64,000 nt of DNA from Rickettsiales bacterium (lineage in GTDB: Bacteria; Pseudomonadota; Alphaproteobacteria; Rickettsiales; UBA1997), in the NCBI GenBank assembly GCA_049418765.1, contig JBMSJJ010000001.1, positions 87,529 to 151,528 of the forward strand, read 5' to 3'. Shown here piece after piece: positions 55,777 through 57,810 of the stretch (within the stretch, counting starts at the first letter, position 1; each line of letters opens with the position of its first letter). Under the pieces are notes generated by a model. It was not told where the DNA came from. It ran no database searches and saw only the letters and a list, made by a program, of their open reading frames with translations. The position numbers and the translations under genes were made by a program.

Positions 55777-57810
55777 TTATAATTGCAAAATTTGTTTTAA
55801 AAAATTTAGCGCATCAGGAATTTTGTTGACCAAAACTCCGGCTCCCATCGCCAAATCTTTTTTGCCACCTCCACCCTTGCCACCAATAATTTCAGTGATT
55901 TGTGGTAAAATTTTGCTAGCATCAAATTTATTAGTTAAGTCGTTAGAAATCGCTAAACAAACTGCAACCTTATCATCGATAATGCCAAAAAAAACTAAAA
56001 TTTGGGATTTAGAAAATTGTTGCGATTTTTGTGCATGTATCATGATTTCTCGGAGGTCTTTGCTGTCGGTTTCTTTGAAAATATGATGAGAAAAATTGAT
56101 ATTTTTTATGTTTTCGGTTTGTATTTTTTGTAAATTTTGGCTCCAAATTTCTTGTTTTAAACGCAAAATTTCCTTATCTTTTTCCTTAATATTTTGTAAA
56201 AAATCAATTCCGATTTGGGTAGTCTTTTCTAGGGCTTGATTTAGGTTTTGACTTTGACTTTTATTGATAATTTTTGGAGTATTTTCGTTAAGAAAATAAC
56301 TTAAATCATCATAGCCAACTTTGTTTGATAAAAACTCGTTTTCAGCAATTTTTACCTCGTCAAATTGTTGCTTTACTTTAAGAGAGTTTAATAAGGCGTA
56401 GAATTTTTGTTCTTGGAGTTTTAAATGTTGAAGTGCGTAAAAACCTGATTTGGCAGTAATTCGACGAACTCCAGATGCCACTCCATTTTCGGAAATAATT
56501 TTAAAAATTCCAATATTACCAGTATTTTCAACATGAGTTCCGCCACATAATTCAATCGAAGGTCCCATGGCAACAACTCGTACGATATCGTCATATTTTT
56601 CGCCAAAAAGAGCCTCAGCACCAGAATTTCTTGCCTCATCAATTGGCATTTCATTGGTGTGAATTTTTGAATTTTGACGAATGTAAAAATTGACCAACTC
56701 TTCAACCTGTTCAATTTCTTCATTTGACATCGCACGATTTAAATTAAAATCGAAAGTAAGTTGTTTGGCATCAACATTTGAGCCTTTTTGTGAAATGGAA
56801 TTGCCCAAAACTTCTTTCAAAGCCTTATGTAAAAGGTGAGTTGCCGAGTGATTTTGTGCCCGAAATTGGCGGTGGCGATTATTGACTATGGCAATAACCT
56901 CATCACCGATTGATAGATTGCCTTTAAAATCGGCAACGAAATGCACAAAAAGATTTCCAGCAAATTTTTTAGTTTCCAAAATATCGACAAAATTTTCGAT
57001 GTTATTATAGTCAATTGGTTTATTTTCTTGATAATTTGTTGAAATAAATAAGTTACCATCATCGCCCTTTTGACCACCTGAAGTTGCATAAAATGGGGTT
57101 TGGTCAAGAATTATAAAAATTAAATCACCAGCCTTTTTTTCGATTAAATTTAAATTCGATACCTCTTTTAGATTATGAAAAATTCCTAAAATTTTTGCTT
57201 TGGCTTTAGTGGTTTGGTGATATAAAAATTTAGTTTCACCAAATTTTTCTTTGAGTGTAAAAAAGATTTTGTCATCAGCAATTTCTCCACTTCCAGCCCA
57301 GCTTTGGCGAGCTCTTTGGCGTTGATTTTCCATTTCTGATTCAAATTTATCCAGATCAATTTCTAAATTATTTTCGCTACAAATATTTTGTGTTAAATCA
57401 AGTGGAAAGCCAAAAGTATCGTAGAGTTTAAAGGCAATTTCTCCTGATAATTTTTGTTTTGAATTATTTGAATTTTTGATTTTGGCAATTTCTTCATCTA
57501 AAATTTTTAAGCCATTTTCGAGGGTCTCACGAAATTTTTCTTCTTCAGTTTTTAAAGTTTCAATAATTACATTTTTAGCTCTAGATAATTCGGAGAAATT
57601 CCCGCCCATTTCAGTAATTAAAGCTTCAACTAATTGATGCAAAATTAAATTTTTTGCTCCCAATTTATGAATTTGACGAACACTTCTGCGAATGATTCTG
57701 CGAAGCACATAACCCCGCCCTTCATTGCTTGGTAAAATTCCGTCAGCGATTAGAAAACAGCTCGAACGCAAATGGTCGGCGATGATTTTATATTCAGTTT
57801 TTAAAGACAT
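55777..57810 (-). CDS. alaS: alanyl-tRNA synthetase fragment: tRNA-recognition, editing and C-Ala domains, lacking the N-terminal class II catalytic core
   Basis: 677 aa beginning [42 protein letters not shown]. By my recollection of the E. coli sequence this corresponds to roughly residue 260-270 of E. coli AlaRS. Editing motifs [11 protein letters not shown] and CGGTHV are present, as is a C-terminal [10 protein letters not shown]. An in-frame TAA lies two codons upstream of the ATG. Confidence 0.9.
   Translation of the reverse strand: [677 protein letters not shown]

Follow-up and report, generated by a model that had tools for sequence, protein, structure and literature searches.

An alaS gene in the 64-kb stretch of Rickettsiales DNA analyzed here (the window) very probably encodes the larger of the two pieces into which alanyl-tRNA synthetase (AlaRS) is divided, the catalytic piece of approximately 261 residues being encoded at an unlinked locus. 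The split is found in Bacteria from mesophilic aquatic metagenomes. We refer to the large and small polypeptides as the C-piece and the N-piece, respectively. The C-piece gene and its immediate surroundings are laid out as follows:

55777..57810, minus strand: alaS C-piece ("beta-like" subunit), 677 aa (ORF listing; Pfam, TIGR00344)
57814-57816, minus strand: in-frame TAA, two codons 5' of the ATG at 57808-57810 (read from the sequence)
57794..58708, minus strand: upstream EamA/DMT transporter gene, ending with TGA at 57794-57796 (ORF listing, Pfam)
54886..55776, minus strand: downstream EamA-family gene, beginning directly after the C-piece stop codon

The 677-residue reading frame covers AlaRS from approximately E. 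coli residue 275 onward, with residue 8 of the C-piece pairing with R282 of E. coli AlaRS in our alignment, and it cannot be extended in the 5' direction because of the TAA two codons before its ATG. In Pfam, the match to PF01411 (tRNA-synt_2c) starts at profile position 269 of 552 and is followed by tRNA_SAD and DHHA1, giving a domain set of PF01411 (part), PF07973, and PF02272. In NCBIfam, the match to TIGR00344 is confined to positions 268-847 of the 847-position model. At 508 bits, this match still clears the cutoff of 457, and this accounts for the label of a complete enzyme that the protein carries in public records: the C-piece is identical to P0001, i.e., MFZ9180375.1, "MAG: alanine--tRNA ligase [Rickettsiales bacterium]". 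What the polypeptide lacks is a defining feature of AlaRS, the class II catalytic core and its motifs 1-3. The original prediction, made from the letters of the sequence, had described an alaS gene without its aminoacylation core and with a TAA two codons upstream; Pfam, TIGR00344, and the E. coli alignment bear out the former, and the stop codon at 57814-57816 the latter.

The last 17 nt of the upstream EamA gene overlap the start of the C-piece gene, as had been predicted for this transporter, so that neither a catalytic domain nor half of an intron or intein could fit between the two. It had also been proposed that the catalytic domain is not adjacent, and in fact no such domain was detected in the whole 64-kb window, either by tblastn with the E. 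coli and Rickettsiaceae N-domains or by profile search of its six-frame ORFs. The N-piece of this genome is absent from the window and from the approximately 10 kb beyond one of its ends; on a sister contig, the 10 kb past the window's left end are occupied by a glycosyltransferase cluster. The gene order RNase J - EamA - alaS-C is common to the window and to one related locus (L001), but differs at another (L002), where it is ParA-like gene - alaS-C - RNase J. We considered duplication of the EamA gene as a cause of the split and rejected it, given that the two flanking EamA genes are unrelated in sequence.

The C-piece carries three further defining features of AlaRS: a recognition domain with its Asn and Asp, an editing zinc site, and a C-Ala domain. 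These map to the following positions:

57301..57810, minus strand: tRNA-recognition (acceptor-stem "ATL") domain, residues 1-170 (3HXU alignment)
57724..57726, minus strand: Asn29, equivalent of E. coli N303 (alignment to E. coli)
57418..57420, minus strand: Asp131, equivalent of E. coli D400 (alignment to E. coli)
56455..57117, minus strand: editing (AlaX-like) domain, residues ~232-452 (NF040865 AlaXM, PF07973)
56836-56850, minus strand: zinc motif HSATH, residues 321-325
56533-56547, minus strand: zinc motif CGGTH, residues 422-426
55783..56118, minus strand: C-Ala/DHHA1-like C-terminal domain, residues 565-676 (PF02272, 3G98)

Residues 7-170 of the C-piece align with residues 280-438 of 3HXU, the crystal structure of the E. 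coli AlaRS 1-441 aminoacylation fragment (E = 1.5e-48). In the E. coli enzyme, N303 reads U70 (PMC10036535) and D400 reads G3 (PMC10036535, PMC11392972), the two residues hydrogen-bonding the G3:U70 identity pair (PMC10036535). Both are retained across the C-piece family: the N303 column holds Asn in 118 of the 119 members that have a residue there, and the D400 column holds Asp in 120/120. The first helix of the C-piece (...GRGYVLRRI) is likewise nearly invariant. Further along, NF040865 AlaXM spans residues 232-452 and PF07973 spans 410-451, and the equivalents of the editing zinc ligands H564, H568, C666, and H670 show little or no variation among C-pieces. At the C-terminus, PF02272 spans residues 580-676, while residues 565-675 match PDB 3G98, a 111-residue chain deposited as alanyl-tRNA synthetase. 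The HSATH, CGGTH, and PF02272 matches thus agree with the editing motifs and C-Ala domain noticed beforehand.

An intact editing domain and C-Ala domain are also what one would see if the ORF were a trans-acting paralogue that edits or binds tRNA(Ala), i.e., an extended AlaX protein, in cells where a complete AlaRS encoded elsewhere performs alanylation. Free-standing AlaX proteins are common, and all three types (AlaX-S, AlaX-M, and AlaX-L) share the editing fold and its zinc site (HxxxH and CxxxH), to which AlaX-L adds a C-Ala-like domain. The genomes of the clade were moreover examined as incomplete assemblies, so that a full-length alaS could lie elsewhere in them. However, the C-piece begins with a full recognition domain of approximately 170 residues that AlaX proteins lack, in line with what the original prediction had said of this region. 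The domain is of the aminoacylation type and keeps the equivalents of N303 and D400, and the AlaXM match reaches 87.8 bits, far short of the model's cutoff of 300. The catalytic genes described below weigh further on this question.

It had been suggested that the same split be sought in relatives, and it proved to be widespread. The 120 best database relatives of the C-piece (51-100% identity, 604-749 aa) are all cut at the same residue, and in nearly all of them the KIIADH motif follows about 10 residues after the start; greater length, where it occurs, is due to internal insertions or extended start calls and involves no catalytic sequence. Their sources are assemblies made independently (NCBI, JGI, ENA, and Logan), with contigs of 1.52 Mb and of 767 kb among them, and their gene contexts vary. 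The split is also present at 19 related loci (L001-L018 and L049), which comprise L001, L002 (duplicated by L003), and 17 alphaproteobacterial loci from a scan in which each GTDB species was represented by a single genome, the latter with C-pieces of approximately 41-98% identity. No N-domain was detected at any of the 19 loci by tblastn and profile search of the fetched flanks, up to 10 kb on each side. Six loci were traced in the 5' direction (L007, L009, L014-L017), and in each a stop codon precedes the motif by no more than about 50 codons. The ORF of L007 is interrupted. As a control, we analyzed 34 non-alphaproteobacterial loci from the same scan: the N-domain was contiguous upstream in 32, and the remaining two were one contig-end case and one weak match.

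These findings bear directly on whether the truncation could have arisen artificially during assembly or binning, could mark a pseudogene, or could reflect a rearrangement that took place very recently in a single contig. The source is a metagenome-assembled genome (MAG) and the interruption at L007 could be taken in the same sense, but the identical start recurs in assemblies of independent origin, the two long contigs included, among different neighbors. In addition, the ORF in the window is intact with its functional residues all kept, and, since its coding sequence overlaps that of the upstream gene, it has no junction that could have been misassembled. We therefore regard such an origin as extremely improbable; the recent rearrangement or misassembly entertained in the original prediction is refuted by the common cut point of the 120 best relatives and the 19 loci.

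The missing domain exists as a free-standing protein. When 1.84 billion cluster representatives were searched exhaustively with HMMER and an alphaproteobacterial N-domain profile, the matches listed included P0258, a protein of 265 aa consisting of the AlaRS catalytic domain alone and encoded by a complete ORF within its contig, between ndk and another gene. With P0258 as the query, at least 120 clusters were recovered that contain PF01411 only, mostly 260-264 aa in length. Genes for these N-pieces sit on contigs of up to 884 kb and, at every locus inspected, are compact and flanked by unrelated genes. At L147, the gene starts 1 nt after a class-I lysS and overlaps the next gene; at L057-L066, it is divergent from a tRNA-synt_1b gene; and at L151-L153, it lies between ompH and anmK. 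N-pieces keep the AlaRS core with its catalytic motifs and are without any recognition domain. Their sequence is approximately 66-71% identical to ordinary alphaproteobacterial AlaRS cores, and no clade-specific signature residues were found in them. In some MAGs, the N-piece is labeled "hypothetical protein".

The choice of search had a marked effect on the recovery of this family. In a word-indexed search with the Rickettsia N-domain, the matches listed were all pieces of ordinary full-length alaS, either frameshifted or cut off by a contig end, and these out-ranked the true N-pieces. In a control scan of metagenomes with the N-piece P0454, ordinary full-length AlaRS genes were among the matches listed, being detected through universal motifs. 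The N-pieces P0508, P0402, and P0500 come from assemblies unrelated to the 1.52-Mb JGI contig and to the MAG that contains the window.

Two relatives' MAGs contain both pieces as unlinked genes that jointly cover the whole of AlaRS. MAG RFYG01 (GCA_009925685.1) carries a C-piece on RFYG01000021.1 and the N-piece P0454 on RFYG01000078.1, a link that depends on metagenomic binning of short contigs. In the Rickettsiaceae MAG GCA_021323225.1, the C-piece P0118 (MCE3255078.1) is encoded on the 767-kb contig JAJTCH010000001.1 and the N-piece P0532 (MCE3255667.1) on a contig of 333 kb; the two accessions are 589 apart within the same submission. A single sequencing run, SRR35179664, also yields both pieces on assembly. 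With C-piece identities of 69% and 52%, respectively, RFYG01 and GCA_021323225.1 bracket the lineage of the window, whose own genome presumably encodes a small piece too. Among the matches listed, no contig was common to an N-piece and a C-piece. Together with the existence of the catalytic gene family, the presence of both pieces on different contigs supports the first of the possibilities raised at the outset, namely that separate loci encode the two pieces of AlaRS.

The two families also fit each other closely. The N-piece aligns to residues 4-265 of 3HXU, with an envelope reaching 271; the N-piece family ends at approximately E. coli residue 271-274 and the C-piece starts at approximately 274-275, so that together they tile E. 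coli AlaRS with neither gap nor overlap. Such exactly complementary boundaries argue against an editing paralogue that coexists with a complete AlaRS. In addition, the catalytic genes of the two clade genomes have no recognition domain and would need the C-piece to read tRNA. We accordingly judge the paralogue to be improbable, and prefer to read the C-piece as the large subunit of a divided synthetase.

We also considered whether the two pieces could be joined after transcription or translation. The halves of split inteins measure about 100 aa and about 35 aa. N-pieces end a few residues from the domain boundary with other genes directly after, and we rejected a split intein or trans-splicing on this basis; at the other junction, an intein or intron half was rejected given that only 7 residues precede the conserved helix and that the start overlaps the upstream gene. 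Since neither junction can accommodate half of an intein or of an intron, the two pieces must function as distinct polypeptides. The possibility that tRNA genes adjoin the pieces was likewise rejected.

Based on these results, we propose that an ancestor of this Rickettsiales-like clade split alaS within the short linker that joins the class II core (motifs 1-3) to the acceptor-stem recognition domain. The small piece of approximately 261 aa would activate alanine and transfer it to tRNA. The large piece would provide the recognition domain, in which Asn and Asp read G3:U70, the site for editing of Ser/Gly-tRNA(Ala), and C-Ala as the module for tRNA-elbow binding and dimerization. The two chains are predicted to associate non-covalently, probably rebuilding the normal interface between catalytic and recognition domains, to give a specific and proofreading alpha-beta enzyme; dimerization through C-Ala might result in an alpha2-beta2 assembly. 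Physical association and joint activity of the pieces are inferred.

A different division of labor can be envisaged, in which no stable enzyme forms: the small core would charge tRNA(Ala) by itself as a minimal AlaRS, and the large piece would be a separate specificity or proofreading factor that meets it on the tRNA. AlaRS-alpha of Nanoarchaeum equitans offers some encouragement for this, since it alone charges weakly and independently of G3:U70 (PMC11392972). Nevertheless, both precedents for charging by a reduced enzyme keep all or part of the recognition domain, of which the N-piece has none, and 368-residue fragments of E. coli AlaRS cannot charge tRNA, the minimum being 442 residues (PMC11392972). 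The lack of a recognition domain in the N-piece, combined with this minimum, implies that the small piece needs the large one. Moreover, the nearly invariant first helix of the C-piece is as expected of a retained domain interface. A core that acts alone is thus about as doubtful as the paralogue, if not slightly more so, and an enzyme of two associating chains remains our preferred model.

With respect to the origin of the split, a neighbor-joining tree placed the C-pieces in one clade relative to 71 full-length representatives, with moderate support (28/40 bootstraps). The N-pieces also formed one clade in the point estimate, with weak support (12/30 bootstraps). A single ancient fission is likely and is the simplest reading of these sequences, mainly because the cut point is identical throughout. 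We further think it reasonably probable, though with less confidence than for the two-piece reading of the gene itself, that an old and diverse aquatic Rickettsiales-like clade runs on an obligate heteromeric AlaRS composed of a bare class II core and an ATL/editing/C-Ala subunit, and that this represents the first natural fission of AlaRS in Bacteria, independent of the nanoarchaeal one and located where the catalytic domain meets the ATL domain.

The split also has practical consequences for annotation. The large piece is catalytically empty yet named alanine--tRNA ligase, whereas the catalytic subunit goes by "hypothetical protein" in some MAGs. MAG quality checks and phylogenomics make use of single-copy markers, alaS (TIGR00344) among them; if it serves as such a marker, completeness estimates and marker alignments for the clade can be skewed by the split.

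According to published accounts, AlaRS alone among the synthetases has retained its prototype of four domains on a single chain in all of life, and Nanoarchaeota are the one exception cited (PMC10036535, PMC11580382). The system described here has the same four domains in the same order and with the same key residues as the canonical single-chain enzyme (TIGR00344; E. coli AlaS), but has them on two polypeptides whose genes are unlinked. A second fission, independent of the first, shared by a whole clade of Bacteria, and at a different and cleaner boundary, would therefore be an exception to a textbook rule. It would also provide a natural experiment on communication between the catalytic core and the acceptor-stem latch, on reading of G3:U70 in trans, and on the relation of AlaRS to the two-subunit glycyl-tRNA synthetase (GlyRS). 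If the two-chain model is correct, subunit stoichiometry could tune charging against proofreading. The mini-AlaRS of Tupanvirus is another natural departure from the four-domain prototype (PMC10036535); unlike in that case, nothing has been lost here and the domains are redistributed over two genes.

Our search of the literature (full text) found no split AlaRS from Bacteria, the only split AlaRS in the papers searched being that of Nanoarchaeota. The resemblance to the latter, to which the gene had been compared from the beginning, is apt insofar as both systems consist of two unlinked genes with the catalytic core on the N-terminal piece; the N. equitans pieces together have strong, G3:U70-specific activity (PMC11392972). 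The analogy does not extend to the site of the split. The archaeal cut falls at approximately E. coli residue 368, inside the recognition domain, and leaves the Asn on alpha and the Asp on beta (PMC11392972). In contrast, the cut here lies about 95 residues earlier, at approximately residue 272-275 and precisely at the border of catalytic core and recognition domain, and the large piece carries both the Asn and the Asp. The sequences are also of bacterial type, in contrast to the nanoarchaeal pieces. The different cut site and the bacterial-type sequence, with its 66-71% identity to alphaproteobacterial cores, indicate that the bacterial fission arose independently of the nanoarchaeal one.

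In its general layout, the bacterial pair also resembles a different enzyme, bacterial GlyRS, in which a small catalytic subunit (GlyQ, alpha) is paired with a large ATL-bearing subunit (GlyS, beta) and the subunit sizes are similar. The AlaRS core and ATL have their closest relatives in the core and ATL of GlyRS (bioRxiv 10.1101/2023.05.29.542759). A two-chain AlaRS, if confirmed, would be a living reproduction of the GlyRS alpha/beta division, with core and latch working as separate polypeptides in the manner that the "bricolage" model of AlaRS/GlyRS origin proposes. GlyS nevertheless has HD, body-tail, and anticodon-binding domains and lacks both an editing and a C-Ala domain; the likeness is one of architecture by analogy rather than of family membership.

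The hits of a search with the Rickettsia N-domain include several alaS ORFs from unrelated alphaproteobacteria (P0136, P0141, P0161, P0198, and P0199; contigs of at most 145 kb, except one of 2.56 Mb) that are terminated by a frameshift in the same short linker between catalytic core and recognition domain at which AlaRS is split in this clade. The frameshift lies just N-terminal of the RVIADH motif and, when re-read, the out-of-frame tails give ...SFRVIADH. Either homopolymer errors introduced during sequencing or incipient fissions that arose independently at one shared weak point may account for these frameshifts. 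The C-piece of one relative, L007, is interrupted: its frame breaks after 170 codons, yet the tblastn match spans residues 1–676, and the break may reflect either a frameshift error or a pseudogene.

CAZUPN010000005.1 (L007), 9998–10507: interrupted C-piece frame

Free-standing catalytic-piece genes often adjoin other synthetase genes. A class-I lysS lies directly upstream at L147 and L148, with a gap of 1 nt, and close by at L149 and L150; in loci of the type found in RFYG01, a metagenome-assembled genome (MAG) carrying both pieces, a divergent tRNA-synt_1b gene lies upstream. Two related loci, L151 and L153, share a single tRNA-Ile(GAT) gene just 5′ of the catalytic piece.

L147, 8425–10795; L148; L149, 6001–9578; L057–L066: catalytic-piece gene with synthetase neighbor
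L151, 5875–5951; L153, 5903–5979: lone tRNA-Ile(GAT) gene, directly upstream of the catalytic-piece gene

Within the window, alaS-C is flanked on each side by an EamA/DMT transporter gene. Recent duplication was rejected as the origin of this pair, since, apart from matching one family profile, the two genes show no detectable similarity in sequence. Separately, two closely packed small ORFs from the ORF listing occupy the stretch that separates glmM from a gene for a GNAT acetyltransferase; an Rfam search of this interval at gathering and permissive thresholds gave no match, and the ORFs could represent a frameshifted small gene or genuine mini-proteins.

54886–55776, minus strand: EamA/DMT transporter (family profile)
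57794–58708, minus strand: EamA/DMT transporter (family profile)
53141–53512, minus strand: two ORFs of 67 and 55 aa

The split creates an annotation trap. The catalytically empty C-piece (55777–57810) is named alanine--tRNA ligase because its TIGR00344 score of 508 bits exceeds the cutoff of 457, while in some NCBI MAGs the true catalytic pieces, P0454 and P0552, are labeled “hypothetical protein” (EBT63_05775 and EBT55_04675).
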